Shown: positions 11,419-52,309 of the stretch, piece by piece | How positions within the stretch are numbered: the first letter of the stretch is position 1 | Layout: every line of letters starts with the position of its first letter | Assembly: GCA_036376245.1 (NCBI GenBank) | Contig: DASVAS010000072.1 | Location: forward strand, 12,959 to 76,958 | DNA from: Thermoanaerobaculia bacterium | GTDB taxonomy: Bacteria > Acidobacteriota > Thermoanaerobaculia > Multivoradales > UBA5704 | DNA: 64,000 nucleotides | Direction: 5' to 3' | Notes under the pieces: generated by a model | The model's input: only the letters and a program-made list of their open reading frames with translations | Databases searched by the model: none | Told to the model about the DNA's origin: nothing | Position numbers and translations under genes: made by a program

Positions 11419-11426
11419 GTTCTCTC

Positions 11427-13283
11427 CTAAACACCGTTGACGGTGAAGCCGCGGCTCAGGAACGAGGTGGTCGCCGAGAGCTCGTCCCGCACCGCCACCG
11501 CCACCCGGTGATCGCCGGGTTGCAGGTGGACGGTCAGGGTGTAGACGTAGAACTGTCCCATGGCGTGGAGGACCTCCTTGACCGGCACCTGGATGTGCAA
11601 CGGCACCTGCCGTACCTGCGAGGTGCGCCCCTCGCCGTCCCGGGTGGCCAGCAGCAGCCGCAGCCTGGCCTCGATGCCCTCGTCCTTCTTCTCCAGGATC
11701 GCCAGCTTGTAGACCGGGATCCTGAGCTGGACGGGCACCGAGACGGCGCCGTTGGGCCCGGGCGTCTGCTGGCCGATCTCCAGGCCGATCTGCAGCGGAT
11801 TTTCGTCCGCGCCGTAGTAGAGGGACGCCAGGGTGCGGTCCACGGTCTTTTCCATCACCGACTTGTCGCGGTAGCTCTGGCGGTGGCGGACCCGCAAGCT
11901 CTTGTTCCGCGCGCGGACCTCGATGCTGTGCTCTCCGCCTTCGCCGCGGCTCCCGGGCTCGAAGCCGAGAAGGTAATAGAAGGAGGCGTCCTCGCGCATG
12001 CGCGCCAGGGCGGGGGAGATGTCGTTGACGCCCAGGATCGCCCGGCCCCCCGTGCCGTCCGCGAGGGCGGTGAGGGAGTCCTGGTAGCTCTTCCGCAGTG
12101 TGAGGTCGATCGACTGGAAGTGCGTGATGCGGTCTCCCGGGTCGGCGTCCGCGGCGGCGGGCCGCTCCGCGCCCACGGCCTGCAAGGTGTACAGGGTCAC
12201 CTGTTGGGCGTTGGCGTGGGCCACCAGGCCGTCGATCTCCTTGCCGATGTGGTAGCCCTGGGCGTCGAGCGGAGCCTGGGACGCCCCCTGGTAGGCCCGG
12301 GGGCCCAGGGACCGCGGGTCATAGACCATGTCCGGGCTCTGGCTGGGCTGCCGGAACGGCACCTTTTCCCCATCGGGGCTTGCCGGGTCGGGGAGCAGCG
12401 GCCCGGTCCGTTCGTCCTCGGGCTTGTCGTTTCCTACGGGGATCTGCCTGCCGATGCCTCCCGTGCCGGAGCCGCCGCCGCAGATCTCGGCGAGGAACTG
12501 GAACACCTCCGCGCCCGGCGTGGCCGGGATGCCGTCGCTGACGTGGAGCACCGCCTTGCGGCCCGGCAGGCCCGAGAGCGAGTTCACCAGCACCTGCAGG
12601 CCGCCGAGGGTGCGCAGGGCTTCGTCCTTGCGCGCGGCGGCGAAGTCGTGGGCCGGCTGGGCGATCGACGGGGGGCAGGGGAGCGGTTCCAGCGGATCGC
12701 TCAGCGAAGCCCCCTGGATGGTCAGGATCGCGCGGTAGGCCCGCTGCCGGTCGGAGTCGGCGGTGAGAGCGTGGGCCGGGAGCCCCTCCAGGTCGTCCAG
12801 GGCCTTGGCGAGGGCGGCGGAATCCGACGTGAAGGGAAGGCGGACCTTGAGGCCCATGTCGTAGCTCGCCAGCATCACCCGGTCCCCCGGCGCGAGGGTT
12901 CGTCCCAGGACGTCCCGGAGCTGCCGCAGCACGCGGGCGCGGTTGGCGGGATGAATGTTGAAGTTGTCGACGAAGACGATCAGGTTCCAGGCGTCTTCGG
13001 GAGCGGCCCCGCCGTCCCCGGCCTCCCCACGCCGCGCGCCCCGCTCCACCCGGTCGAAGTTGGAGATGCCGGCCCGCCTGCCGTCCACCAGGAGGTCGAA
13101 GTCCCCCTTGCGCAGGCCGGTCACCGGGTTGCCTCTGGCGTCCGTGACGTAGACCTCGACGTTGACGACGTTGACGTCCACCGACTCGCCGAAGCCCGTC
13201 CTCTCGGGAGCCTGAGCGGGCAGCGCGGACGCGCCGAGTCCCGTCAGCGACAACCAGCACAGCAGCGGTCGGAGGCGCGTCAT
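11427..13283 (-). CDS. VWA domain protein, Acidobacteria-type VWFA family (paralogue 1 of 3)
   Basis: Start taken at the internal ATG giving MTRLRPLLCWLSLTGLGASALPAQA (signal peptide); FGESVDVNVVNVEVYVTDARG..., GGRAILGVNDI, HRQSYRDKS. Confidence 0.75.
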   Translation of the reverse strand: MTRLRPLLCWLSLTGLGASALPAQAPERTGFGESVDVNVVNVEVYVTDARGNPVTGLRKGDFDLLVDGRRAGISNFDRVERGARRGEAGDGGAAPEDAWNLIVFVDNFNIHPANRARVLRQLRDVLGRTLAPGDRVMLASYDMGLKVRLPFTSDSAALAKALDDLEGLPAHALTADSDRQRAYRAILTIQGASLSDPLEPLPCPPSIAQPAHDFAAARKDEALRTLGGLQVLVNSLSGLPGRKAVLHVSDGIPATPGAEVFQFLAEICGGGSGTGGIGRQIPVGNDKPEDERTGPLLPDPASPDGEKVPFRQPSQSPDMVYDPRSLGPRAYQGASQAPLDAQGYHIGKEIDGLVAHANAQQVTLYTLQAVGAERPAAADADPGDRITHFQSIDLTLRKSYQDSLTALADGTGGRAILGVNDISPALARMREDASFYYLLGFEPGSRGEGGEHSIEVRARNKSLRVRHRQSYRDKSVMEKTVDRTLASLYYGADENPLQIGLEIGQQTPGPNGAVSVPVQLRIPVYKLAILEKKDEGIEARLRLLLATRDGEGRTSQVRQVPLHIQVPVKEVLHAMGQFYVYTLTVHLQPGDHRVAVAVRDELSATTSFLSRGFTVNGV

Positions 13284-18035: not shown

Positions 18036-19829
18036 ATGCGATCGAAGTCCGTGTTTGCGATATTGATCCCAATATTGATCCCAATATTGATCCTGGCGTC
18101 CGCCGCCGCCTGGGCCGCCCCCGCGAAGGACGACCTCCAGGCCCGGCGCGACGCCTTGAACGCCCTGCTCGCCGAGCAGTGGGAATACAACCTCTCCCGC
18201 ACCCCGGAGTTCGCCTCCATCCTGGGCGACAAGCGCTGGAACGACAAGATCTCCGACTTCTCCCAGGAGTCGATCGACGCCAACCTCGCCAAGACGAAGG
18301 AATTCCTCAAGAAGTTCGAAGCCATCGACACCACCGGCTTCCCCGAGCAGGAGGCTCTGAACCAGGAGCTGATGGTGCGCGGGCTGAAGGAGGATATCGA
18401 GGGCTCGAAGTGGAAGGGCTACCTGATGCCGGTCAACCAGATGGGCGGCATCCACCTGCTGCTGCCGCAGCTCGCCTCGCTGGTGCCGCTGGCCACGGTC
18501 AAGGACTACGACGACCTGATCGCCCGCTACCGCCAGTACCCCAAGGTGTTCGACCAGACGATCGGGCACATGCGGACCGGCATGGCCGCCGGCCTGATGC
18601 CGCCCAAGTTCCTGCTGGAGAAGGTGGCGACGCAGGCCGAGGGGATCGCGGCGACGCCCATCGAGCAGTCCCCCTTCGCCCAGGCGCTGGCCAAGTTCCC
18701 CAAGGAGATCCCCGAGGCCGAGCAGAAGCGCATCCGCGAGGAGATGACCGCCGCCATCCGCGACTCGCTGATCCCGTCGTACAACAAGTTCGCGAAGTTC
18801 GTGAAGGAGGAGTACGCCCCGAAGGGACGCACCGAGCCCGGCATGTGGTCGCTGCCCGACGGCGCGGCCCGCTACGCCTGGGAAGTGGAGCAGTCCACCA
18901 CGACCAAGCTGACGCCGGAGCAGATCCACCAGATCGGCCTGCGCGAGGTGGCGCGGATCGAGGGCGAGATGCTGGTCATCGCCAGGAAGCTCGGCTACAA
19001 GGACGTCAAGAGCTTCAACGCCGCCATCGAGAACGATCCCAAGCTCAAGGCCAAATCGCGCGAGCACATCCTCGAGCTGTACCGCAAGCATATCGACCAG
19101 ATGTACACCCAACTGCCGCAGCTCTTCGGCCGCCTGCCCAAGGCCAAGGTCGAGGTCATGAAGGTGGAGGAGTTCCGCGAGAAGGAAGCTTCGGGCGCGC
19201 AGTACATCCCCGGCGCGCCGGACGGCTCCCGGCCCGGCCGCGTGCTGGTGAACACCAGCGAGCCGGAGACGCGCAAGGTCATCTCCATGGAATCCACCGC
19301 CTACCACGAAGGCGTGCCGGGGCACCACATGCAGCTCTCCATCGCGCAGGAGCTGCCCGAGCTGCCGCCGTTCCGCCAGCAGGGGGGCTACACCTCCTTC
19401 GCCGAGGGCTGGGCCCTGTACTCCGAGCGCCTGGGCAAGGAGGTCGGCTTCTACCAGGACCCGTACAGCGACTACGGCCGCCTGCAGGACGAGATGCTCC
19501 GCGCCATCCGCCTGGTGGTGGACACCGGCTTCCACTACAAGCGCTGGAGCCGCGACCAGGTGGTCCAGTTCTTCCGCGACCACTCGGCGACGGACGAGGT
19601 GGACATCCAGAGCGAGACCGACCGCTACATCGTCTGGCCGGGCCAGGCCCTGGCCTACAAGATCGGCCAGATGAAGATCCTCGAGCTGCGCGAGCGGGCC
19701 AGGAAGGAGCTCGGCGCCAGGTTCGACATCCGCAAGTTCCACGACGAGGTCCTCGGCGGCGGCGCGCTGCCGCTGGACGTCCTGGAAGAGCGGATCGACA
19801 CCTGGATCGCCGCGCAGAAGAAAGCCTGA
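18036..19829 (+). CDS. DUF885 family protein (putative metallopeptidase-like, HEGVPGHH)
   Basis: RBS gaaaggaga; signal peptide containing ILIPILIPILIL (a triplicated 12-bp DNA unit); HEGVPGHHMQ motif. Confidence 0.7.
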   Translation: MRSKSVFAILIPILIPILILASAAAWAAPAKDDLQARRDALNALLAEQWEYNLSRTPEFASILGDKRWNDKISDFSQESIDANLAKTKEFLKKFEAIDTTGFPEQEALNQELMVRGLKEDIEGSKWKGYLMPVNQMGGIHLLLPQLASLVPLATVKDYDDLIARYRQYPKVFDQTIGHMRTGMAAGLMPPKFLLEKVATQAEGIAATPIEQSPFAQALAKFPKEIPEAEQKRIREEMTAAIRDSLIPSYNKFAKFVKEEYAPKGRTEPGMWSLPDGAARYAWEVEQSTTTKLTPEQIHQIGLREVARIEGEMLVIARKLGYKDVKSFNAAIENDPKLKAKSREHILELYRKHIDQMYTQLPQLFGRLPKAKVEVMKVEEFREKEASGAQYIPGAPDGSRPGRVLVNTSEPETRKVISMESTAYHEGVPGHHMQLSIAQELPELPPFRQQGGYTSFAEGWALYSERLGKEVGFYQDPYSDYGRLQDEMLRAIRLVVDTGFHYKRWSRDQVVQFFRDHSATDEVDIQSETDRYIVWPGQALAYKIGQMKILELRERARKELGARFDIRKFHDEVLGGGALPLDVLEERIDTWIAAQKKA

Positions 19830-21296: not shown

Positions 21297-21353
21297 AATT
21301 GGCGTTGCGTCGACCGCGGAAGCTCCGCGCTCGTCGCAAGCCTTCCGCGACGG

Positions 21354-21440
21354 TTTTTTAGCCTTAAAAATCGTCGCGGAGCTTCCGGCGCCGCCGTATA
21401 GCCTTAAAAATAGTTTTTTAGCCTAAAAAACTAGTTTTAT
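21354..21440. repeat. AT-rich patch with three TAGCC(T)TAAAAA(T) copies
   Basis: TTTTTTAGCCTTAAAAAT ... TATAGCCTTAAAAATAG TTTTTTAGCCTAAAAAACTAG TTTTAT; strongly AT-rich relative to the surrounding DNA. Confidence 0.6.
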
Positions 21441-21444
21441 TCTT

Positions 21445-21564
21445 CCGCGGCCGTTTTTAACGCTCCGGCGGCGTTTTTAACGGTCCGGTGGCGTTTTTAA
21501 CGGACCGGCGGAGTTTTTAACGCTCCGGAGCAGTTTTTAATGCTCCGCGGCCGTTTTTCGGGCT
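21445..21564. repeat. six head-to-tail 20-bp direct repeats (iteron-like array)
   Basis: CCGCGGCCGTTTTTAACGCT / CCGGCGGCGTTTTTAACGGT / CCGGTGGCGTTTTTAACGGA / CCGGCGGAGTTTTTAACGCT / CCGGAGCAGTTTTTAATGCT / CCGCGGCCGTTTTTCGGGCT. The period is exactly 20 bp and each junction can form AACGC-N7-GCGTT followed by T5. Confidence 0.75.
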
Positions 21565-23630: not shown

Positions 23631-23722
23631 ACAAGGACCTAAAGGACCTAAACGACCTAAACGACCTAAAGGACTCAAAGGACAGTCATTCGTCCTTTTT
23701 GTCCTTTAGGTCGTTTAGGTCC
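23631..23722. repeat. nonamer-built palindromic hairpin element, copy 2
   Basis: AAGGACCTA AAGGACCTA AACGACCTA AACGACCTA AAGGACTCA AAGGACAG then a TCATTCG loop and the inverted arm (GTCCTTTTTGTCCTTTAGGTCGTTTAGGTCC); lies between the convergent cupin and hemD 3' ends. Confidence 0.7.
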
Positions 23723-26793: not shown

Positions 26794-28662
26794 ATGTCAC
26801 GTCGGCATATCCTTCCCCTCTTCCTCCTGACGGGCGCTCTGTTGACGCAGGGAGCGCCGGCCCAGACGCCGGCCCGGCCGGCGCAATTCATCGTCCCGCC
26901 CGGCTCGAGCAACCAGCTCCTCGCGGCCGTGGCCATGGACGGCGCGGACAATCTGTCCTTCCTCTGGACCGACTTCTCCAGGAGCTCCCTGGGGCTCGTC
27001 TCCACCCGGCGCTTCTCGGCGCTCGACGCGCCCCTGGGCCCGGCGGTCCGGCTGGAGCGGTCGAGATACACCTCGAGCTCCGGCACGATCGTGGCCAATC
27101 AGCGCGGCGACGTCCTGGTGACGTGGGCCCGGTTCCCCACGGCTGATCCGAGGGGCGTCACGGAGTTTTTCCTGCGGCGGACGAGCCCGGTCTTACCGAC
27201 CCTCACCCTGCGGCTCAAGGGTCTCGGGGACGTGGCGGTGGACGACGCCGGGAACTTCGTCGTCGTCTGGACCACCTTCACCCGCGCCGGGACACGCGTG
27301 TTCGGCCAGCGCTACAACGCCGACGGCACGGCGCGGGGACCGGAATTCAACGTCTCCACCTCGCCGATCGGGAACCACGTCTCGCCGAGCGTCGCCATGA
27401 ATCCGAGCACCGGCGAGTTCGTGGTGGTCTGGGAGGAGAATCTGAACCAGGGTGCAGAGGGGTTCGGCGTGTTCGGCCAGCGATTCGGGTTCGTCACCGG
27501 CCGGCAGGGGAGCGAGCTCTTCGTCTTCGTGCCGTCCGTGAACGCGCGTCCGGCTTCGGGCGACCTCTTCGCTCCCCAGGTGGCGCGGGCGGCGAACGGC
27601 CGGCTCGTCGTGATCTGGAGGGATGCCGGCCTCGAACGCGGAGGCGTTCTGGGGCAGCGCTACAACAATGGGGGGGCCGCGGTGGGCGGGCGGCTGGTGA
27701 TCACCGGGGACAAGCACCCGAACAGCCGGCCGCAGATCGCCATGTCCCCGGCCGGGGACTTCGTGGTCGCCTGGGACGACCTGGGCGGGATCGAGGCGTG
27801 GTTCCGCCTGTTCCACCGCGACGGGACGCCGGCCGGGCCGGTGATCGCGCAAACCCCGCTGGGGAGCTCCCCCAATCTCGGGGCCGCCAAGGTGGCGTTC
27901 GGAGGCAACGGGACGTTCGTCTACGGCTGGACGAACTACGACGACGAGGGCGTCGGCCACACCATCAGCTTCCAGCGTTTTGCCGCCTCGCCGGGCGACG
28001 AGCCCTGCGTCTTCCGCAACCGCCACTTCCACTGCGACACCGGCCGCACCGGCGGCGAGCCGGAGATCGACAGCACGTTCGACATCCGCGACGGCCTGCC
28101 CCTGGCGGGCGATGTGGACGGCGACGGGCGCGAAGAATTCTGCCTCTTCCGCACCAACCGCTTCGACTGCGACAGCGGCCATGACTTCGGCGCCGCCGAG
28201 GCCTCGGTCGTCTTCGGCCAGGCGGGGGACTCGCCGGTGATGGGCGACGTGGACGGCGACGGGCGCGACGACGCCTGCGTCTTCCGCGGCGACCGCTTCC
28301 TCTGCGATTCCGGCCACGACGGCGGCGCGGCCGAGACCGAGATCATCTTCGGCGCGCCGGGCGACCGGCCGCTGATGGGCGACGTCGACGGCGACGGCCG
28401 GGATGAGGTCTGCGTCTCCCGCGGCGGCGAGTTCCGGTGCGATACGGCGCATGACAGTGGGGAGGCGGAGACGGTGATCGCCTTCGGCGGCAACGGCACC
28501 CCGCTCCTCGGCGACTTCGACGGCGACGGCCGCGACGACGCCTGCGTGCATTTCTTCCAGACGTTCTGGTGCGACACGGCTCATGACGGCGGCGAGGCCG
28601 AGGTCACCCTCCGCCTCCCCCGCAAGGGCCGGCCTTTGATGGGAAACATCGACGGTCTCTAG
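26794..28662 (+). CDS. secreted repeat protein: N-terminal FGQRYN-type repeat region plus five C-terminal Cys-bracketed FG-GAP/VCBS-like repeats
   Basis: Signal peptide MSRRHILPLFLLTGALLTQGAPAQTP; recurring VFGQRYNADGT...EF.V / VFGQRFGF.TGRQGSEL units; C-terminal repeats of form C.FR...F.CD(S/T)(G/A)HD.G.AE..(I/V)..G..GD.P(L/V)MGD(V/F)DGDGRD(D/E). The track's 1054-aa version has a spurious upstream extension. Confidence 0.65.
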   Translation: MSRRHILPLFLLTGALLTQGAPAQTPARPAQFIVPPGSSNQLLAAVAMDGADNLSFLWTDFSRSSLGLVSTRRFSALDAPLGPAVRLERSRYTSSSGTIVANQRGDVLVTWARFPTADPRGVTEFFLRRTSPVLPTLTLRLKGLGDVAVDDAGNFVVVWTTFTRAGTRVFGQRYNADGTARGPEFNVSTSPIGNHVSPSVAMNPSTGEFVVVWEENLNQGAEGFGVFGQRFGFVTGRQGSELFVFVPSVNARPASGDLFAPQVARAANGRLVVIWRDAGLERGGVLGQRYNNGGAAVGGRLVITGDKHPNSRPQIAMSPAGDFVVAWDDLGGIEAWFRLFHRDGTPAGPVIAQTPLGSSPNLGAAKVAFGGNGTFVYGWTNYDDEGVGHTISFQRFAASPGDEPCVFRNRHFHCDTGRTGGEPEIDSTFDIRDGLPLAGDVDGDGREEFCLFRTNRFDCDSGHDFGAAEASVVFGQAGDSPVMGDVDGDGRDDACVFRGDRFLCDSGHDGGAAETEIIFGAPGDRPLMGDVDGDGRDEVCVSRGGEFRCDTAHDSGEAETVIAFGGNGTPLLGDFDGDGRDDACVHFFQTFWCDTAHDGGEAEVTLRLPRKGRPLMGNIDGL

Positions 28663-43040: not shown

Positions 43041-46000
43041 TCAGCATTCGTCCGGCACGCCGTTGCCGTCCGCGTCCGCGCTCACGCCCTCCACGATGTC
43101 CGTCAGGTCCGACTGGCTGTTGGCGTTGCAGTCGTTCGCCGGCCCCGTGTAGCGGAGGAGGAAGGCGTCGTAGTCGGCGCGGTCGACGTCGCCGTCCCCG
43201 TCCGCGTCGAACGTGTCGCGGCAGGCGTTCGGCGGCGTTTGGAAGGCCGGATCGCTCCCCGGACCGGTCCAGCAGGCCCGCAGCTCCAGGAAGTCGCTGA
43301 GACCCACCGCGCCGTCGCCGTCGGCGTCCCCCGGCGTGCTGGAGACCCGGACCTCCACGATGGTGGCGAGGCCGCTGTTGGCGGCGTGGACGATGGTCGA
43401 TCCGGCCTTGACGGCGGTGACCGTGCCGTTCGCGTCCACGGTGGCGATGGTGGGATCGTCGCTCCAGTACGTGGTGCCGGCCGCGGCGGCGCTGACGTCG
43501 CGCTCCACGCCGTCGTCGAAGGAGCCGGTCACCGTCGCCGAAGCGCTCGGCGTCGTGGCGGAGAGCAGCAGGGGCTGGGAGGACATGGCGAGCCCGGTGA
43601 GGGCGGCGGGGACGTCGACCCGCAGGGGCACGGACGCCGAAGCGATGCGGCCCTGGGCGTCCTCGGCGACGGCCACCAGCTCGATCCGGCCGGCGGCGTC
43701 GGTCGGCACGTCCACGACGTCGTCGAAGCTCGCCGCCTCGACGCCGGTGAAGCCGTGACCGTAGCGGAGGAAGATCCGGACGGGCGTGAAGCCCGCCGCG
43801 CCGGCCACGGTCACCGGCAGCGTCGAGCCGGCCGTCACGGTGGCCTCGGGGCTCGGCGTGGCGATCACGAGGCCGCCTTCAACGATCACCGGTTCCGTCT
43901 TCTCCGCGAGCAGGAGCTTCGGCTCCGCCTCCGGCGCTTCGGCGAGCAGCGCCGTCTGTGGAGTGCAAAGCGAGAGGGGAGAGATGGAGGGGATCGGCAG
44001 ACCCGCGGCGAAGGCCGGGTCGGCGACCGGCTTGTTGAGCAGGTCGATCGCGGCCCGGTTGTAATCCGCCGAGGAGGTGTTGGAAGTGTGCATCGCCTGG
44101 AACGGATCGGACGTGACGGGGCCCACCGCGGCGCCCGCCGGCAGACCCGCCCGCTGGCTGCACACGCCCACGATCACGTCGTAATCCGGCTCGGGCAGGA
44201 AGAGGTTGTCCATGAAATTCGCCGCGCCGCTCAGGGCCATCATCTGGATCAGGATGCCCGCCCAGTGCGTGAAAACAGGCGGCTGGTTCTGGACCCACTG
44301 CCGCCCGCCCTGGCCCACGAACGCGTGGACCGGCAGGCCGATCGGGGGCAGCGACTGGACGGCGGTGCCGCCGCGCCGGAGATCCTCCATCGCGCCCCCC
44401 GCCGCCCGCGGCTCGGAGAGGAGGATGAAGGCTTCGCGCAGCGCGGGCCGGGCGACGACGTAGTTGGCGATGGGCGAGCCGAGCTGCGGCGAATCGATGA
44501 TCACCAGCTTGTGGAGGGTGCCGGTGTAGAAGTTGGCCGGCTCGCGGTATTCATGGGCGCGGGCCACGTCCGCCGGCGTGCCCCGGAGCTGCGCGTAGAT
44601 GCGGCCGCCGGCGTAGATGCGGGACAGGATGCCGCCCATGCTGTGGCCGAAGACGTCGGCCTGGGTGACCGCGAACCCCTTCTTGCGGAACGCCTGGAAG
44701 GCGTTGTTCACGCCCCACCAGACCTGGCTCTGGTTTTCGAGGAAGCTTTTGCCGGCGTGCGGCTCGTAGTCGTGGGGATAGACGAAGAAGCGTCCGTCCC
44801 GTAGCAGGGGCCACTTCCAGCTCGCGCCGTCGCTCCAGACGCCGTGGACGAGGACCACGGGGGGCCGGACGAGGTCGACCTTGCGGGTCACGGTGAGAGA
44901 GGAGCCGCCGCCGGAGGGAGCGAAGACGGCCGTCAGGTCGAGCTGGCGCGGCTTGGACTGGCCGAGGTCGGCGTCGCCCGCCACGCCAGGACGCACGAAG
45001 TCGATCGGGGCGGTCAGCACGGCGAAGGCCCACCAGGCGCTCCCCACCTGGCGGGCGGCGACGGTCACCGGATTGGCGGTCGTGGCCGGCTGGCCCAGGA
45101 GGTCGGCGAGGCGGCCCGCCCGCGCCGGGTCGCGCGAGCCGCGGTCGTCGGCCAGGGTGAAGGTCACGGACCCCGCCCCCGGCGCGCGGAAGCGGAGGAT
45201 CACCGGCGTCACGCCGTCGGCGGCCAGGCCGCGCACCCGCGCTCCCATCGTCGCCAGCAACGCGGGATCGCGGCGGATGAACTGCGCCGGCTGCGAGCCG
45301 AGGGGCGTAGCGGAGTCGAGCAGCCGCGGCGCGTCTCCCGAGATGGGATCGACGATCTCCAGCCGCGAGACCGGCAGCGTGACGTTGCGCTCGGCCTGGC
45401 AGCCCTGGGGATGGTCGTAGCGCACCCGGACCACCACCACGCTTTCGAGCGGCAGGGTCGCGTCGGCCCGCACCCGCACCGGGCAGCGGGCGTTGCCGTC
45501 CGGATAGGTGGTGCAGGGGCCGGTGCGCTCGATCGTGGCGTTGCGGCTGGGGACCGTCGCGGTCAGGGAGCCGCCGGCGGGCGACGCGCTCACCAGCAGC
45601 TCGATCGTCTGGCCCGCCTGAAGCGCCGGCGGCGCCTCGACGCGCAGGATCGAAGCCGGTCCGCCGCTCGGGCAGACCGTTCCCTCCGCCGGCAGGCCTT
45701 CGAGCGGATTGCGGCAGGGGAAGTCTTCCTTCTGCTCCGGATCGACGCGGACGGTGGGCCAGAGCGTGTACTTGATGCCGAGCTCCGCCAGCGGCGTGCC
45801 GTCCGCGAGCGTGATCGAGCGCGGGTCCTCGGCGCAGAAGACCACGGAAGCGGAGCCTTCGCCGTAGGTCGGCGATCCCGAAGCGAGGGCCGACGCGCCG
45901 ACGCTGCCCTCGATGCGGACCTCCAGGCCGCTGCCGGTGAACGGCTGGATCTGGAGCGGCAGGACGGTGCTCGATTCGCTGCCGGTCTCCACGCCGGAGA

Positions 46001-47525
46001 AGAAGCCGTACCGGTTCGCCGCGCCGTTGACCACCTGGATGCTGCCGCTCGCCGAGGAATACTCGCCGATGTTGCGCGCCGGGCGCAGGGCGATGCTGGC
46101 GTTCGCGGCGCCGTTCGTCTGGCTGTTGACGGTGAACGCGGTCCCCTGGACCTGGAAATGAAAGCGGACGTCGAGCTGGGTCTGTCCCGGCAGCAGGTTG
46201 GCGACCACGGAGCCGTAATCGAAGATCACGTACGACGTGAACTTCGCCCCGGCGCTGGGCACGGAAATGCCGTCGTCCTGCTGGTGGGCCTGCGCCGAGG
46301 CCGCGTACGCCTCGATGGCCGATTCGCTGAGGCTGGTCTTACGCTTGATCCGGAAGTGGTCGATGATCAGCTCGGTGCTGGTCTTCGCCGGCTCGGGCAC
46401 GCAGAGCGGCTGGAAGCTCGCGGCGCACAGGCCGTCCTGCCAGGTGAGCATCTCCACCGGCTTGGCCAGGAACGCGTGCCGGACGCCGCCGTAGGTGCCG
46501 CTGCCCACGATGACGCCCTCGTCGCCGATCGAATGGGCGGCGTCGAGATGCCAGGGCTTGCAGTTGTCCGGATGGCCGTCGCGGCAGGTCGGGAGCATCA
46601 TCTCGTTCAGATCCCAGGCCTGGATGCCTTCCCACAGCACCGCCCGGGTCTCGCCGCCGCCGCCCGCGTAGCCGACGATGCGGCCGCTGGAGAGCTGGAG
46701 GTCGCGCGCCGCGGAATCGCCGCCCGCGGCCGGCAGCTCGGTCAGGCCGGTGTCCGACCGCCAGCGGAAGGCGCGGGCGTTCCCCGGCGCGCCGACCTGG
46801 CCGACGGTGGTGAGCACGCCGGACGAGCTGAACAGGCGATAGGCCACGCTGGGCTCGGTCCCGAGCGGATAGACCACCGCGTTCGTCGACCGCTTGGGAT
46901 ACCAGAGCGCGAACCGTCCCTGGTGCTGCCCGGCCGTCACCGGATCGGTCGTGGAGCCGGTGATGGCGAAGGCCGCGCTGGTCCCGGACACCGGCATCAC
47001 GGTCGGCGCGAACGACGGTATCAGCCAGTAGGCCGCGCGGCGCTCGCCGGAGACGGTGACCTCGCCGGCGACCTGGCCGACGGAGTCGATGCCCCAGGCG
47101 ACGCCGCTGGAGCTGCCGGTGGGGAGGCGGAAGAGCTGAGGCAGGATGCTGCCGTCGCTCTGCTTGGTCCACAGCGCGGGCCGGTCGTTCCCCGCCGCGT
47201 CGCGGGTGAGCCCCAGGGCCGTGACATCCCCCTTGAAATCGAAGACCTCGCTCAACACGTCGGACCCGACCGGACAGAACGCCCGCCGCACCCCCGTCCG
47301 GCTTTCGTAGAGGAATCCCGCGCGCGGCACGGACCCCGGGCAGATCGGCGTTTCGAGCGCGCCCGCCGTGACCCCCAGGCCGATGTTGCGCACCCGGTAG
47401 GCGTCGCCCGGTCCGAGGTCCGAGACCGAGTAGTATCGTGGGGGAGACGTGCTCTGCGCGTAGACGGCGGCGGAGCCGAGGAAAGCCAGGGCCAGGGACG
47501 CGAGGCGAAGGACGAAGCGGTCCAT
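43041..47525 (-). CDS. large (1494 aa) secreted multidomain protein: HAF-type repeats, alpha/beta-hydrolase (lipase-like GHSMGG), Ig-like Big_2 domain, dockerin-like Asp-rich C-terminus
   Basis: Signal peptide MDRFVLRLASLALAFLGSAAVYA; AWGIDSVGQVAGEV-type HAF repeats; VVLVHGVWSDGASW ... DVFGHSMGGILSRIY nucleophile elbow; SDDPTIATVDANGTVTAVKAGSTIV (Big_2); DADGDGAVGLSDF ... DADGDGDVDRADYDAF ... DADGNGVPDEC (dockerin/EF-hand-like). Confidence 0.7.
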   Translation of the reverse strand: MDRFVLRLASLALAFLGSAAVYAQSTSPPRYYSVSDLGPGDAYRVRNIGLGVTAGALETPICPGSVPRAGFLYESRTGVRRAFCPVGSDVLSEVFDFKGDVTALGLTRDAAGNDRPALWTKQSDGSILPQLFRLPTGSSSGVAWGIDSVGQVAGEVTVSGERRAAYWLIPSFAPTVMPVSGTSAAFAITGSTTDPVTAGQHQGRFALWYPKRSTNAVVYPLGTEPSVAYRLFSSSGVLTTVGQVGAPGNARAFRWRSDTGLTELPAAGGDSAARDLQLSSGRIVGYAGGGGETRAVLWEGIQAWDLNEMMLPTCRDGHPDNCKPWHLDAAHSIGDEGVIVGSGTYGGVRHAFLAKPVEMLTWQDGLCAASFQPLCVPEPAKTSTELIIDHFRIKRKTSLSESAIEAYAASAQAHQQDDGISVPSAGAKFTSYVIFDYGSVVANLLPGQTQLDVRFHFQVQGTAFTVNSQTNGAANASIALRPARNIGEYSSASGSIQVVNGAANRYGFFSGVETGSESSTVLPLQIQPFTGSGLEVRIEGSVGASALASGSPTYGEGSASVVFCAEDPRSITLADGTPLAELGIKYTLWPTVRVDPEQKEDFPCRNPLEGLPAEGTVCPSGGPASILRVEAPPALQAGQTIELLVSASPAGGSLTATVPSRNATIERTGPCTTYPDGNARCPVRVRADATLPLESVVVVRVRYDHPQGCQAERNVTLPVSRLEIVDPISGDAPRLLDSATPLGSQPAQFIRRDPALLATMGARVRGLAADGVTPVILRFRAPGAGSVTFTLADDRGSRDPARAGRLADLLGQPATTANPVTVAARQVGSAWWAFAVLTAPIDFVRPGVAGDADLGQSKPRQLDLTAVFAPSGGGSSLTVTRKVDLVRPPVVLVHGVWSDGASWKWPLLRDGRFFVYPHDYEPHAGKSFLENQSQVWWGVNNAFQAFRKKGFAVTQADVFGHSMGGILSRIYAGGRIYAQLRGTPADVARAHEYREPANFYTGTLHKLVIIDSPQLGSPIANYVVARPALREAFILLSEPRAAGGAMEDLRRGGTAVQSLPPIGLPVHAFVGQGGRQWVQNQPPVFTHWAGILIQMMALSGAANFMDNLFLPEPDYDVIVGVCSQRAGLPAGAAVGPVTSDPFQAMHTSNTSSADYNRAAIDLLNKPVADPAFAAGLPIPSISPLSLCTPQTALLAEAPEAEPKLLLAEKTEPVIVEGGLVIATPSPEATVTAGSTLPVTVAGAAGFTPVRIFLRYGHGFTGVEAASFDDVVDVPTDAAGRIELVAVAEDAQGRIASASVPLRVDVPAALTGLAMSSQPLLLSATTPSASATVTGSFDDGVERDVSAAAAGTTYWSDDPTIATVDANGTVTAVKAGSTIVHAANSGLATIVEVRVSSTPGDADGDGAVGLSDFLELRACWTGPGSDPAFQTPPNACRDTFDADGDGDVDRADYDAFLLRYTGPANDCNANSQSDLTDIVEGVSADADGNGVPDEC

Positions 47526-47599
47526 CGAAAACCTCCAGGCTGATGCGGCGGACTGTTTATCTTATTCTATCATAGGAATAAGTTGGCTGCCCGGCGAGC

Positions 47600-48060
47600 C
47601 TCCCGGGTCTTCAGACTTCCGGGGAGAGAAACGGAACGAGCCCCCCGGACGTCGCGGCATCAGGGTGGGACGCAAGACCGGCGGGGGAGACCGCGCTCCC
47701 TCGAGTCCGGAACGCTCTCCCCGACGCCCGGACCCTCTGGGCGAGCACCCGGAAGGCTCGTCCCCGCGCCCTGGACGTCCGTACCCGCCGCCGGAACGTT
47801 CTCCCCTGCGTCCGGAGGTCTCCACCAAAAACCCGGACGTCTTCAACAAGTAGGTGGAGGTCTCTACCTGTTGGGTGGAACGCTCTACCCACTGGAAAGA
47901 CGCTTCCGGCGAGTGGGTGGACGCCGCCACCCATTGGGTGGGCCGCTCCACCCAATGGGTGGAAGGCTCTACCTGTTCGGTAGAGCGCTCCAACGAGTGG
48001 GTGGCACCCTCTACCCACTGGTACGGACGATCCGGGAGCGCGAACGGACGTTCTCCCTTA
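47600..48060. repeat. repeat-dense non-coding region including a 24-bp dyad-repeat array (47851..48022)
   Basis: Direct repeats CCGGAACG(C/T)TCTCCCC(G/T)(A/G)CG(C/T)CCGGA at 47706 and 47790, with a third diverged copy at 48040; CCCGGACGTC..GGTGG at 47645 and 47831; six approximately 24-bp units GGTGGA.GCTCTACC(C/T)(A/G)(C/T)TGG, with CCACCCA(A/T)TGGGTGG cores that are perfect palindromes. Confidence 0.65.
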
Positions 48061-48163
48061 TGCTCTTCCTATCCGGGGCCGCCGAATGCACGCATTCCCG
48101 CTCCGTGGATATCGGCCACCCGGTAAATTGACCGCCATGCGACGATCCCCATATACTTCCTCC

Positions 48164-49051
48164 ATGGCCGAGCCCCTGCGCAACACGCCGGCCGACTGGG
48201 AGAGCGAACCGACCTCGTCTCCCGGCGCCGATCCCTTCCCCTACGGATGGCGGATCCGGCACGTCCGCCTGCCTAGCGGCGAAGTCGCAGAGCAGCAGAT
48301 CCCGCTGACGCCGGAGGACCTTCTCGACCCTCAACTGGGAGACGTCGTGGTCCAGAGCGTAGATCACTATTGGGAGGCGCATGACGTGGCGGGTCCCCTC
48401 CGGGATCACTATGCCTCGCGGGAGGACGTCCTGGTCGCCAGCGACGTGAAGCTGCTCTGGGGGATTCAGGATCTTAAGGAGCCGGCGCCGGACGTCGCGG
48501 TCATCTTCGGAATCCGCGACAAAAAGGCGGAGCGGGAAAGCTTCAATTGCGTCGCTGAGGGTACCCGTCCCAGCCTTGTCATCGAGGTGGTCTCCTCCAA
48601 GGACGCGGAGGTGCGCCGCAATGACTACGTGGACAAGGTCAGGATCTACGAGCAGGCGGGGGTCCCCGAGTACATCATCCTCGACCCGCCGTCGCGACTG
48701 ACGAAGAATCGCTTCCTGCTGACCGGCTATCGTCTGGAGGTCGGCGGGAAATACCAGCCGATCCAGCCCGACCCGAAAGGCTTCCTCCTCTCCAAAACCA
48801 CCAACCTCCTCTTCGGCGCGGCCGAGGATGGCCAGACGCTTCAGGTGATCGACGCGGCTACCGGGGAACGGCTGTTGACTTCTCTTGAGGTGAAAGAGGC
48901 TCAGCAACGGGAGGCAGAGGCCCGAAAGCAGGCGGAAGAGCGAGCCGCGCAGGAAACCGCTCGTCGAAAGGAAGCGGAGGAGCGGGCCGAAGCCGCCGAA
49001 GCCGAGACCGCCCGCCTCCGGGCCGAGTTGGAGCGATACCGGGGGCAGTGA
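48164..49051 (+). CDS. Uma2 family (DUF820) PD-(D/E)xK endonuclease-like protein with C-terminal coiled coil
   Basis: PDVAVIFG ... PSLVIEVVSSKD ... YEQAGVPEYIILDP core; Glu/Ala/Arg-rich tail ending AETARLRAELERYRGQ; start at MAEPLRN (the track start 48086 is upstream). Confidence 0.65.
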   Translation: MAEPLRNTPADWESEPTSSPGADPFPYGWRIRHVRLPSGEVAEQQIPLTPEDLLDPQLGDVVVQSVDHYWEAHDVAGPLRDHYASREDVLVASDVKLLWGIQDLKEPAPDVAVIFGIRDKKAERESFNCVAEGTRPSLVIEVVSSKDAEVRRNDYVDKVRIYEQAGVPEYIILDPPSRLTKNRFLLTGYRLEVGGKYQPIQPDPKGFLLSKTTNLLFGAAEDGQTLQVIDAATGERLLTSLEVKEAQQREAEARKQAEERAAQETARRKEAEERAEAAEAETARLRAELERYRGQ

Positions 49052-49884
49052 TTCCTCCGATGGCAGCGTCTCCTCCCCGTGTCGATCCTTTTCGATTTGG
49101 ATGGCGTTATCGCTACGTCCCTCAACCCAACGGCGAAGTCATTCAAGAGCAGATCCCGCTGACGCCGGCGGATCTTCTCGATCCTCAACTGGGAGATGAG
49201 ATACCGCAGACCACACAGCACTACCGGAAAGTCCATGACCTTCAGGATCAACTCCGGACTCAATTTCGTGGTCGAAAAGATGCTCTGGTCGTCTCCGACC
49301 TGAAGATGCTTTGGCGGATTCCAGGTCTCGCCGAGCCCGCGCCCGACGTCGCCGTCATCTTCGGGATTCAAGACAGGGAGACGGATCGGGACAGTTTCGA
49401 TTGCATCCTCGAGGGGACTCGTCCCAGCCTCATCATTGAGGTCGTTGACTCTAGAGATCCAGAATTACGGCGCCATGACTACGAGCGGAAGGTCACGATC
49501 TACGAAAAGGTGGAGATCCCCGAGTACATCATCCTCGACCCGCCAACGCCGTCTACGAAAGGCCGTTGCCTCCTGACCGGCTATCGTCTTGGCGCCAACC
49601 AGAAATATCGGCCCATCCAGCCGGACGCGCAGGGATTTCTCCTGTCGGAAACCACGCAACTCCGGTTCGGCGTGGCTGAAGACGGTCGTAGCTTTCAGGT
49701 GATCGAGGCTGTGGCAGGAAAGCCTCTGCTCACGCTGCCGCAGATGGACGAGGCTCGGAAGCAAGCGGAAGAGCGAGCCGCGCAGGAAAAGGAGCGGGCC
49801 GAAAGGGAAGTCGAGGCCCGGAAGGCCGCCGAAGCCGAGATTGCTCGCCTCCGGGCCGAGTTGGAGCGGGCTCGGCGGGGGTAG
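49048..49884 (+). CDS. Uma2 family (DUF820) endonuclease-like protein, tandem paralogue
   Basis: GTG start overlapping the preceding stop (GTGA); the same PDVAVIFG / PSLIIEVVDSRD / YEKVEIPEYIILDP blocks and coiled-coil tail EIARLRAELERARRG. Confidence 0.65.
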   Translation: MIPPMAASPPRVDPFRFGWRYRYVPQPNGEVIQEQIPLTPADLLDPQLGDEIPQTTQHYRKVHDLQDQLRTQFRGRKDALVVSDLKMLWRIPGLAEPAPDVAVIFGIQDRETDRDSFDCILEGTRPSLIIEVVDSRDPELRRHDYERKVTIYEKVEIPEYIILDPPTPSTKGRCLLTGYRLGANQKYRPIQPDAQGFLLSETTQLRFGVAEDGRSFQVIEAVAGKPLLTLPQMDEARKQAEERAAQEKERAEREVEARKAAEAEIARLRAELERARRG

Positions 49885-49891
49885 CAGGTCT

Positions 49892-52309
49892 TTAGGATTC
49901 CTGTTCGCGGAGGCGGGCGCGGATGGCTTCGACGTAGGCGGCGTCCTTTTCCGCATCCAGGTGGCCGATCTCTCGCCTGAAATCAACAAAGACCTGCATC
50001 AGGTCCGCGGCACGCTGGAGATCTCCTTCCTCCTCATACCCAAGTCCTAAATTCCAATTGGCATTGGCCTCTCCTATTCTGTCTCCGATCTCGCGAGCGA
50101 TGGCGAGGTGCTGTTCGTAAAATTCGATGGCGCGGTGGGGCTCGCCGAGATCTGCGTAGGCGATACCCAGGTTGCCGAGAGCGTTGGCTTCTCCGAGCCG
50201 ATCTCCGATCTCGCGAGCGATGGCGAGTTGCTGTTCGCAGATCTCAATGGCACGGTGCGGCTCTCCCAGATTTTTATACGCGACTCCCATGTTGCCGAGG
50301 GTGTGTTCTTCTCCACGCCGGTCTACAATCTCACGTGCAATGGCAAGGTCATCCTCGTAAAACTCAATCGCACGACGCGGATCTCCAAGAAGCGCATGGC
50401 AGTTACCCAGATTGCCAAGGGTTTGTCCCTCAGTGCGCCGATCAGCACTTTCGCGAGCAAGATCAAGTACCTGTTCGTAGAGTTCAATAGCTCGGAGAGG
50501 TTGGCCAAGGTATGTGTAAGCAAGACCAAGACTGCCGAGATGTCTCATTTCTGCGGTCCGCTCACCCAACCGCCGGGCTGCCTCAAGAGCAGCCTCTCTC
50601 CAGATAATTTGCTCTCTAGGATGGAAGCGAGTATACAAAATATAGGTGCCCTCGACAGGATAACCACTACAAAGATACGCTGCCTCTTCAGAGACCGCAG
50701 AGTGCTTTACTGCCCAAGCTTGACCAGCCTGGATATTGCGCCGCTCAGCATCGAACATCCTTAAGCCTACAAGGATCTGCTCGCCTCCCTCCTCAAAGAG
50801 ATTGTCGGCGCGGGCAAGAACTCCCAAATAATGCTTCGCATGCTTAACCCGAGCCTCTTCCTGTTCGTTCTTTTCAAACAATACAACAGCAAACTCCCGA
50901 GCCAGATCATGCAGCCGGAATCTCCTATCGTTCGAATCCCATTCGACAAGGCTGTACCGATTCAGATCGTCCAACTCCTTCTGAGCTGAATCCTCATCCA
51001 ATTCCCAGATCGCCGCTGCAGCCGCCAAATCGAACGTGTCAGGGAAGACGCCCAGCCACCGCCAGAGCCTCCGCTGTTCCTCGTCCAAAAGGTCATAGCT
51101 CGTATGGAGGGAAGCATCCACTCCATCCAGCCGTTCCTTGCCTTCCTTCAATCGGCGAATGTAATCAGCAGGGGAGAGGGTAGGCCGCTCAGCGAGGGCA
51201 CTCCCTGCCAGACGCAGGGCCAAGGGGAGATAGCCACAGAGTTGGGCAATCTCGTCGGCGTCCGCTCCGATCCTTTCGTCGATCCGGAGAAGCAGATCGC
51301 GTGCTTCCTTCTGGGACATCTCGTCTAGATCTTTCGGGACAAACCCCGGTAGGGTGAAGTGGAATCTTGACGTCACCAGCAGCAGTGAGCCCGCAGGAGG
51401 GATCAGCGGCTCTACCTGCGCCCGGCCCTCTCGGGATGCGTTGTCCATAAGTAGGATTGTCCGCTTGCCGTGGAGCACTGAGCGATAGAGCCCTTCCAAC
51501 TGCATCGGATCCTCAGGAAGTTGCACCTCTGGGTGAAAGGACCGGATTACGTGAGCCATCGCCTGAGCAGGCGTCAACGGCTGGAGATCAACTCCTTTGA
51601 GATCGAGATAGATCTGGGCGTCCGGATATAGAGGCGTCAGCTCCTCGGCGAGTTTCAGCGCGAGGGTGGTCTTTCCGACCCCGCCCATACCGCGGAATCC
51701 GAAGATGGCTCCGGCTCCACCCTGGGTCAGCTTCTCTTTGAGGGAAGCGAGCTCTTCCTGGCGTCCCGTGAAGTCGCGCGGAGGAGGAGGGAGTTGGTGC
51801 AGGGCTTGAAGCGGGGAAGAGATGCCTGGCGAGATCGCGCTGTCCCGAGGCTTGGTATCCGCCTTGGGTGTTTCCTGGGTGAAATCGAGGATCTCTTCGC
51901 AGATGCGGGTTAGTTCGGAGTTGAGCTTGCCCTTGAATCGCTCCAGCGGACGGCCGTCTTTGGGGCGGACCTGTAAAGGAGACAGCCAGGAGATCTTCTG
52001 CCAAGCGCAAGCTTCAGCGATGACAGGGATGAATCGAAGACCGTCCTTGGCCTGACGTTCGAGGAGATACGGGACCTCCTCGTTGAGGATGAAGTCCGAG
52101 CTGAGGGAGTTCGAGGTGACCAGGAGAACAGCGGCGTCAGCCCGGTCCATGGCCTCCCGGATCTTCGAATGCCACTGATCTCCAGGGCCGATCTGCTCGT
52201 CATGCCAGGGATCGAGGAGGACCTCCTTCTGGAGCACTCGGAGATGGCGGACGAGGTGGTCCTTCCAGCGACCATCTTTGTGGCTGTAGCTGATGAAGAC
52301 GTTGGGCAT
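49892..52309 (-). CDS. TIR / NB-ARC / TPR STAND NTPase (plant-NLR-like architecture)
   Basis: N-terminal TIR (VFISYSHKD ... AAVLLVTSNSLSS..(F/W)); NB-ARC with P-loop GMGGVGKTTLA, LLLVTSR, GLPL-type CGYLPLALRLAG and MHD-like FRLHDLA; at least eight C-terminal TPR units (GNLG.AY..LGEP.RAIE.YEQ.LAIAREIGDR.GE). Codon usage is visibly more A/T-rich than in neighbouring genes. Confidence 0.8.
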   Translation of the reverse strand: MPNVFISYSHKDGRWKDHLVRHLRVLQKEVLLDPWHDEQIGPGDQWHSKIREAMDRADAAVLLVTSNSLSSDFILNEEVPYLLERQAKDGLRFIPVIAEACAWQKISWLSPLQVRPKDGRPLERFKGKLNSELTRICEEILDFTQETPKADTKPRDSAISPGISSPLQALHQLPPPPRDFTGRQEELASLKEKLTQGGAGAIFGFRGMGGVGKTTLALKLAEELTPLYPDAQIYLDLKGVDLQPLTPAQAMAHVIRSFHPEVQLPEDPMQLEGLYRSVLHGKRTILLMDNASREGRAQVEPLIPPAGSLLLVTSRFHFTLPGFVPKDLDEMSQKEARDLLLRIDERIGADADEIAQLCGYLPLALRLAGSALAERPTLSPADYIRRLKEGKERLDGVDASLHTSYDLLDEEQRRLWRWLGVFPDTFDLAAAAAIWELDEDSAQKELDDLNRYSLVEWDSNDRRFRLHDLAREFAVVLFEKNEQEEARVKHAKHYLGVLARADNLFEEGGEQILVGLRMFDAERRNIQAGQAWAVKHSAVSEEAAYLCSGYPVEGTYILYTRFHPREQIIWREAALEAARRLGERTAEMRHLGSLGLAYTYLGQPLRAIELYEQVLDLARESADRRTEGQTLGNLGNCHALLGDPRRAIEFYEDDLAIAREIVDRRGEEHTLGNMGVAYKNLGEPHRAIEICEQQLAIAREIGDRLGEANALGNLGIAYADLGEPHRAIEFYEQHLAIAREIGDRIGEANANWNLGLGYEEEGDLQRAADLMQVFVDFRREIGHLDAEKDAAYVEAIRARLREQES

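Follow-up and report, generated by a model that had tools for sequence, protein, structure and literature searches.

What fills the 638 bp (positions 47526-48163) that separate a lipase-like gene on the minus strand from the first Uma2 gene on the plus strand in a metagenome-assembled genome (MAG) of Thermoanaerobaculia (Acidobacteriota)? This gap, which is the whole region studied here, lies within a 64,000-nucleotide stretch of DNA, called the window below, and an earlier note on its sequence had described it as a repeat-dense region without a credible gene. Our analyses of open reading frames (ORFs), Pfam matches, homologues and codon usage all agreed that no gene is present. The gap is very likely occupied by a non-coding, diverged and strictly phased minisatellite of 21-bp units that evolves by whole-unit turnover.

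The array was compared among three genomes, which represent two effectively independent lineages. Its position is the same in the window and two orthologous loci, L001, from a Microflora Danica Acidobacteriota MAG and ~90% identical to the window over the neighbourhood, and L012, a syntenic contig from a Joint Genome Institute (JGI) metagenome. A more distant locus, L016, encodes a lipase-like protein with 79% identity. A homologue search with the N-terminus of the lipase-like protein returned one useful match only, with 108 bp of upstream sequence, and a profile of the same N-terminus found no relatives in metagenomes.

A single register of 21-bp units

Laid out in rows of 21, positions 47623-48063 form 21 consecutive units in one register, with no indel. 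Within the array, autocorrelation reached 0.517 for lag 21 and was nearly as high for its multiples (0.496 for lag 42, 0.489 for lag 63). In dinucleotide shuffles the mean was 0.278 (standard deviation 0.022; z = 11 for lag 21), and over lags 5-59 none rose above 0.367. Values for lags 24 (0.278) and 3 (0.292) were at background level. The spacing of about 24 bp given in the earlier note is thus actually 21 bp, and its description of the spacing as a multiple of the helical turn holds for the corrected period and not for 24 bp. A register test, using a weight matrix built solely from the other two genomes, scored 17 units as solid (47707-48063) and three to four units to their left as weak.

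All units are head-to-tail and abut without spacers. They are 50-70% alike and fall into three subtypes, with an all-unit consensus (..gGAacGCTCc.cC.agtGG) that carries about 10 bits per unit; in the window, column 4 is G in 21 of 21 units and column 15 is C in 20 of 21. What had been taken for several separate repeat classes, namely 33-bp direct repeats, a CCCGGACGTC pair and GGGTGG units, share this one lattice. The two 33-bp repeats do exist (47707 and 47791), another copy is located at 47749, and the diverged copy noticed near 48040 is the unit at 48043. The GGGTGG sub-array, previously counted as six units in 47851-48022, has eight (47854-48021), and dyad symmetry, once ascribed to the array, is restricted to these approximately eight units and is lacking in the array as a whole. 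The features of the array and its margins are as follows.

47588-47612: conserved block TGCCCGGCGAGCCTCCCGGGTC, adjoining the lipase-like gene promoter; shared with few differences by the window, L001 and L012, and still discernible in L016
47623-47706: leftmost part of the array, with four weak 21-bp units; register scores low, mostly best at offset 0; 1-nt indels between orthologues
47680-47701: block GGCGGGGGAGACCGCGCTCCCT, within the weak left-margin units; invariant in the window, L001 and L012
47707-47853: seven units of the CCGGAACGCTCTCCCC type (21 bp each), in which a 42-bp super-period is apparent and to which the 33-bp direct repeats belong; L012 lacks four units, exactly 84 bp
47854-48021: eight quasi-palindromic units of the GGGTGGAACGCTCTACCCAnT type, 21 bp each; of all parts of the array, the one with the lowest identity among orthologues (74%), with units replaced or converted in L001 and a TGGACGGAAGGCTCCGGCAAG unit amplified in L012
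47927-47941 and 47948-47962: perfect 15-bp palindromes CCACCCATTGGGTGG and CCACCCAATGGGTGG; 0 expected by chance
48019-48047: block TGGTACGGACGATCCGGGAGCGCGAACGG, identical in the window, L001 and L012
48022-48063: two terminal units; 40 of 42 positions identical between the window and L001, flanks 56-74%
48064-48127: fast-evolving spacer, ending at a synteny breakpoint (~48125); several multi-nucleotide indels relative to L001 over 48064-48163

Within the window, the array was found only at this locus. A search with the array motif as a position weight matrix detected no second cluster anywhere in the 64-kb window, and no further copy of the motif was present in the fetched loci. The conserved 20-mer ACGGACGATCCGGGAGCGCG gave eight matches in metagenomes, all at chance level and in coding DNA, a two-unit pattern gave two chance matches without periodicity in viral sequences, and BLAST against a plasmid collection gave none.

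Turnover by whole units

The array measures 441 bp in the window, 442 bp in L001 and 441 bp in L012, and the gap 638, 629 and 638 bp, respectively. Between the window and L001, identity is 82% over 47623-47853, 74% over 47854-48021, 95% over 48022-48063 and 56% over 48064-48163. Third codon positions are 86% identical in the lipase-like gene and 67% in Uma2. The L001 array is colinear with that of the window; it has three 1-nt indels, and two of its units are replaced by a 'CGGCGAG' type, with 10 differences over 21 positions each.

The L012 array (2904-3344) consists of 21 units in a perfect 21-bp register, and its comparison with the window showed no indel over 357 bp of units. Unit-level alignment indicated that L012 has lost four CCGGA-type units and one GGGTGG-type unit relative to the window and has gained five, including a run of near-identical TGGACGGAAGGCTCCGGCAAG copies, whose similarity means that the amplification must be recent. 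These five gains and five losses are all in 21-bp steps and amount to a net change of zero, with 21 units kept. The distance between the invariant blocks GGCGGGGGAGACCGCGCTCCCT and TGGTACGGACGATCCGGGAGCGCGAACGG is exactly 21 bp shorter in L012 (318 bp) than in the window (339 bp). Thus, besides substitutions, the array undergoes the gain, loss or conversion of entire units, which is normal minisatellite behaviour. Slippage or unequal recombination between units would be the route of this turnover, and whole-unit turnover would by itself explain the fixed period without selection. The constant array length in the two effectively independent lineages is suggestive, no more.

Conservation is unequal along the array and within the unit. 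Blocks of 22-29 nt that are identical in the three genomes lie beside stretches that are 56-74% identical. Over the units of the three genomes, G was found at column 4 in 58 of 60 and C at column 15 in 56 of 60, and most other columns hold less than 1 bit. Where the window and L001 differ by substitution, the informative columns tend to be spared (rho = -0.50, p = 0.02). The perfect palindromes CCACCCATTGGGTGG and CCACCCAATGGGTGG are present as first described, but they are not conserved in L001 or L012, so an operator role is not supported for them.

Two predicted outward-facing promoters

We examined the sequences on both sides of the array for transcription signals. The flanking genes and their predicted promoters are listed here from left to right.

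43041-47525, minus strand: lipase-like gene, 1494 aa, with Big_2 and dockerin-like matches and a weak match only to a PGAP1-like hydrolase
47536-47532, minus strand: GGAGG, between the extended -10 and the ATG of the lipase-like gene at 47525
47572-47564, minus strand: extended -10 TGATAGAAT, ~32 nt upstream of the ATG; it has no -35 and is therefore not flagged by a simple scan
47562-47581, minus strand: AT-rich palindrome TTATTCTATCATAGGAATAA, present as earlier described, which holds the likely lipase-like gene promoter; the palindrome is kept in four orthologous loci, including L016
48128-48166, plus strand: predicted Uma2 promoter, with TTGACC (48128-48133), 18 nt, TATACT (48152-48157), 6 nt and ATG at 48164; 10 of 12 consensus matches
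48164-49051, plus strand: first of two tandem Uma2 nuclease genes, by Pfam match

Its match to the consensus makes TGATAGAAT the likely promoter of the lipase-like gene, and TGnTAGAAT is kept in four orthologous loci, including L016. On the other side, TTGACC-N18-TATACT was the sole sigma-70-like site returned by a promoter scan of the gap. The TATACT -10 with N6-ATG is retained in six of seven Uma2 loci, in three genomic contexts; in L001 the -35 is altered and the distance from -10 to ATG is shorter. The geometry of this promoter predicts a leaderless Uma2 mRNA. The scan found no promoter-like site and one weak terminator-like site inside the array. Both predicted promoters face outward; measured upstream from the predicted starts, the array spans roughly 66-506 bp on the lipase side and 100-540 bp on the Uma2 side. 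The outward orientation at both ends suggests that the array is probably not transcribed. The two conserved promoters now defined, an extended -10 for a secreted-protein gene and a leaderless TTGACC-N18-TATACT for Uma2, are useful for annotation.

The element TTGACC-N18-TATACT-N6-ATG accompanies Uma2 in the window (48128-48166), L012, L013, L015, L017 and L018, and partly in L001, in at least three contexts. Homology between Uma2 loci of different contexts starts ~40 bp upstream of the ATG, as if the gene and its promoter were a mobile cassette.

We asked to which of its two neighbours the array belongs. Uma2 homologues with 74-85% identity and a downstream glyoxalase gene (L013-L015, L017 and L021) are homologous to the window from ~48125 onward only. 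L019 and L020 keep the right-hand synteny of Uma2, DinB and DUF488 (84-86% identical); the left side of both is taken up by a PadR gene and a 192-bp gap, and the array and the lipase-like gene are absent. A link between the array and Uma2 was therefore rejected. As Uma2 keeps its promoter in these other contexts without the array, the array belongs to the side of the lipase-like gene. The proposal that the region marks the edge of an acquired island is borne out in part: there is a synteny breakpoint at ~48125, and the array ends ~60 bp to its left, but the first Uma2 gene is part of a conserved Uma2-DinB-DUF488 block. The genes that look inserted are the second Uma2 gene and the TIR-NB-ARC-TPR gene; this low-GC insert is carried by the window alone, and the array is not associated with it. 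The neighbouring genes (Big_2/dockerin secreted protein, Uma2, TIR-NB-ARC-TPR, OmpA, ABC transporter, DinB) place the array in a chromosomal housekeeping context.

A possible DNA-level element or a neutral minisatellite

Taken together, 47623-48063 is an old minisatellite that fills the spacer between two predicted outward-facing promoters, and nothing demonstrates a new kind of system. Our tentative preference is for a DNA-level role, as a phased array of weak boxes or a phase-preserving spacer upstream of the lipase-like gene. This preference stems from the strong signal at lag 21 (z = 11) with no 3-nt signal, from a register kept perfectly across 17-21 window units and, as an independent case, in L012, from the unequal conservation of columns (G4, C15) with invariant blocks of 22-29 nt, and from the same position in three genomes, the exact 21-bp turnover and the outward-facing conserved promoters. 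Bacterial genomes have a general deletion bias, and the retention of a 638-bp gap in a compact genome therefore argues against junk. A putative multi-operator array, as proposed in the earlier note, is still the best functional guess.

In such a role the array would act as DNA, in the form of a phased row of weak boxes set two helical turns apart from unit to unit. Guanines fixed on alternate strands every ~10.5 bp would be presented on one face of the helix, and a putative DNA-binding or nucleoid protein might coat the boxes cooperatively. Through this coating, the region upstream of the lipase-like gene could have its activity tuned or be shielded from the Uma2 promoter, and the invariant end blocks may be specific sites of higher affinity.

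Several observations weigh against a DNA-level role. The array as a whole is ~80% identical between the window and L001, within the range of third codon positions (86% and 67%), and this similarity indicates that most of it may be drifting. Two of the 1-nt indels of L001 fall in the solid zone, and the constraint on columns was weaker when the information content was taken from L012 (rho -0.32 to -0.39, p 0.08-0.16). The units are so diverse, with three subtypes, that the motif they share is short and weak. No 10.5-bp harmonic of weak and strong base pairs was found in the array, and intrinsic curvature or nucleosome-like phasing was rejected on that ground. We know of no protein that binds such an array, and no regulator, replication or partition gene was present among the neighbours checked. 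Finally, the net-zero change in unit number could be due to chance, which a rough guess puts at 5-25%, and the comparison covers three genomes from two effectively independent lineages.

A selectively neutral minisatellite is nearly as likely as a DNA-level role. It would have arisen by slippage amplification of a 21/42-bp segment upstream of the lipase-like gene and would now be drifting, with unequal exchange alone keeping the period and the conserved blocks being separate promoter-proximal sites that flank it by chance. Divergence close to that of third codon positions, unconserved palindromes, the recent amplification of one unit type in L012 and the replacement of units in L001 are all in line with neutrality, as is the capacity of whole-unit turnover to maintain a register without selection. 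Other intergenic tandem arrays in the same genome and in a relative suggest a general propensity for repeats. In contrast, neutrality does not readily account for two near-invariant columns over 60 units (p ~0.01 under equal rates, by a rough Poisson estimate), for the lack of indels over 357 bp between the window and L012 when units are only 50-70% alike, for a total length that is equal after 10 unit-level changes, or for the persistence of a 441-bp insert in three diverged compact genomes. If the array is merely a drifting minisatellite, its importance is small and comes down to a caution for annotation: its open frames, which reach 182 aa, should not be called as genes.

A more demanding proposal, which appears doubtful, is a lattice of ~21 weak boxes controlled in both length and phase, in which a protein filament would run along one face of ~440 bp and the number of helical turns between the divergent promoters would be selected to remain constant, even as single units come and go freely. 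If true, it would be a chromosomal, regulatory counterpart of plasmid centromere arrays. If the conservation of phase and length is real, the locus would be a clear natural case in which sequence itself is not the target of selection, but helical register and total length are, and would point to a DNA-coating regulator in Thermoanaerobaculia, a class known here from MAG and metagenome sequences of uncultured organisms alone.

Structured RNA, rearrangement and coding alternatives

The earlier note had also listed a structured RNA, which we consider unlikely. On this view, a promoter that escaped recognition would drive a non-coding RNA or long leader, in which the units fold into successive 8-bp hairpins closed by tetraloops. 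Both strands of the array did fold far better than shuffled sequences (z = -7.5 and -6.0), a hairpin could form in each GGGTGG-type unit, with G.U pairs when the plus strand is read, and the conserved blocks show complementarity to one another, partial in the case of the TGCCCGGCGAGCCTCCCGGGTC block and 48026-48038. However, low folding energy is expected of any quasi-palindromic repeat. A search of Rfam 15 at E <= 1 returned MIR1432 and Atu_Ti3 only, both at chance level and far below the gathering score, and RNAalifold on the three orthologues gave a positive covariation term (+7.41), with many pairs broken; a known structured RNA was rejected on these grounds. Among 59 distinct units, only 2 of 11 candidate hairpin pairs covaried, tracking subfamily membership, and G.U-compatible mismatches were balanced between the strands (63 versus 72). 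Homologous units of L012 have an A.C version of the G.U pair of the window. The flanking promoters face outward, and the array has one weak terminator-like site and no promoter-like site.

That the array is a relic or boundary of a rearrangement is very unlikely. A mobile element could have decayed here, with the array as its internal repeat region and imperfect inverted repeats (47589-47612, 48026-48049) as its borders; alternatively, a recombination hotspot might mark the point where the lipase side meets the Uma2-DinB block. The synteny breakpoint at ~48125, with a PadR gene and a 192-bp gap instead in L019 and L020, would fit such an origin, as would the drop in GC across the gap region from 0.72 to ~0.60 and the flanking blocks, which by hand alignment are partly inverted copies (~16 of 24 positions). 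The similarity of these blocks, however, follows from the self-complementary unit, and the breakpoint lies ~60 bp outside the array. There is no transposase, integrase or target-site duplication, no second copy in the 64 kb or in the fetched loci, no match in the plasmid collection, and the two viral pattern matches were due to chance.

A small heptad-repeat protein, encoded by the WV..STHW ORF (47854-48126), its minus-strand twin or a 182-aa ORF (47583-48131), is barely credible and already largely refuted. Its appeal is that 21 bp makes seven codons and that several frames are open: four over much of the array, as expected because its GC content is 67%, and an Arg/Gly-rich 182-aa frame that is open in both the window and L012. 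The ratio of nonsynonymous to synonymous changes (pN/pS) of that frame, 0.62, is indistinguishable from the 0.59 of the N-terminus of a real gene. The two WV..STHW frames gave values of 1.51 and 1.36, the opposite of the codon-level purifying selection that a real protein in 47854-48126 would have shown. GC was flat, at 0.64-0.72 at all codon positions in all six array frames; in core genes of the window it is 0.92-0.97 at third and ~0.45 at second positions. Codon-usage scores were negative in all six frames, and autocorrelation detected no 3-nt periodicity in the array. The window has an in-frame TAG at 47851, and L001 has TGA, TAG and 1-nt indels where the window frames are open, which makes the open frame of each genome a different mosaic; none of the array frames has a conserved start codon. 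Five frames of the gap had no Pfam match, a concatenated four-frame query had no homologue among 5.8 billion proteins, and the 182-aa frame matched, among 1.84 billion representatives, solely unrelated low-complexity heptad repeats of the GGNMHSS and GGCMHLI types. The WV..STHW-type peptides, rightly noticed on both strands, are thus a non-coding by-product of quasi-symmetric DNA.

In L001, the minus strand has a 1481-aa open frame (8576-13021) that traverses the lipase-like gene in antisense, spans the array and reaches into Uma2. This frame shows that ORF length is unreliable as evidence of coding in a genome with 70% GC.

Comparison with known repeat systems

The array has the features of a minisatellite, with head-to-tail units in the range of ~10-100 bp, a significant periodicity (21 bp, z = 11) and differences between genomes by whole units (window versus L012), except that its unit number is apparently constant (21 units in the window and L012; three genomes) and not variable between strains. 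It resembles minisatellites of the variable-number tandem repeat type, such as mycobacterial MIRU or promoter repeat tracts, in its intergenic head-to-tail units of tens of base pairs and in the gain, loss and conversion of whole units, with one type recently amplified in one lineage. It differs from them in the strict register of its units despite their strong divergence (50-70% alike), in a period of exactly two helical turns, and in a constant unit number in three genomes. Unlike dispersed intergenic families such as MIRU, it occupies one locus in 64 kb, in a predicted non-transcribed spacer between divergent promoters and not in an operon.

In layout, the array is reminiscent of plasmid iteron and centromere arrays and of cooperative operator arrays, but it lacks what would make it a member of the former, and its likeness to the latter would be a functional analogy only. 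Like parC of R1 and pSK41, sopC of F and the iterons of P1 and RK2, it has many short sites at a helical-turn multiple, some with dyad symmetry, that would suit cooperative coating of one DNA face. It is not a member of these groups, as it is chromosomal, has no plasmid match and lies beside no Rep, ParB, ParR or ParG gene. Its 21.0-bp spacing is a multiple of the helical turn, as in iterons, but its units are far more degenerate (50-70% alike). An oriC or iteron origin was rejected, since no dnaA or rep was found among the neighbouring genes checked. Tandem operator arrays (MetJ met-boxes, Fur hexamer arrays, omega heptads) would be comparable in their weak boxes upstream of promoters, with few conserved positions. 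However, no candidate regulator is encoded nearby, and the boxes lie at about -66 to -506 from the inferred transcription start site of the lipase-like gene (~47557), not over its promoter. To our knowledge, 21 boxes over 441 bp far exceeds any known operator.

REP/BIME clusters share with the array their GC-rich imperfect palindromes clustered outside genes. REPs occur as hundreds of dispersed copies in alternating orientation, usually at gene 3' ends within transcripts, with a RAYT transposase. In contrast, the array is head-to-tail at a single locus in 64 kb, and the REP hallmarks were not seen. A CRISPR array was rejected because the units abut, without unique spacers. A search of the literature on 21-bp repeats and on Uma2 found no relevant lead.

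Other repeats and rearrangements in the window and related loci

The second Uma2 paralogue and the TIR-NB-ARC-TPR gene, of defence-like architecture, span 49048-52309 in the window, with a GC content of 0.50-0.62. L001 has a single Uma2 gene, and its TIR gene is only ~79% identical. In L018, L019 and L020, Uma2 is directly followed by DinB.

Other contexts of Uma2 have repeats of their own. Upstream of a Uma2 paralogue in L013 (852-1530) and L014 (852-1612) is a repeat of 82 bp that contains a 23-bp inverted repeat. The two metagenome contigs differ by one copy, so that copy number is variable. Words such as ACGGCTCTTCCCC are common to this repeat and the array, with undetectable homology. The PadR-Uma2 intergenic regions of L019 (1712-1903) and L020 (517-709) carry repeated CTCCTAG...CTAGGAG palindromes, probably the PadR operator.

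Elsewhere in the window, approximately five tandem 9-mers (CCAAGGACA, AAAGGACCT and similar) are followed by an inverted complementary array at 3525-3568/3576-3623 and at 29937-29979/30009-30059. These pairs lie after gene 3' ends and could form hairpins with a stem of ~45 bp, and a further 9-mer array at 23633-23683 is unpaired. They look like a repeat family of their own, possibly terminator-like. Between convergent genes, 21350-21560 holds six 20-bp units (CCGsGGCGTTTTTAACGsT) with a 40-bp super-period, preceded by three AT-rich units resembling TAGCCTTAAAAAT and TAGCCTAAAAAAC. At 18060-18093 there is a perfect 12-bp tandem repeat, ATATTGATCCCA, in 2.8 copies, which is AT-rich for the host genome. 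Lastly, a 135-bp (45-codon) tandem repeat at 28005-28547 lies in a long ORF rich in GDVDGDG-type motifs and is presumably a coding repeat domain.

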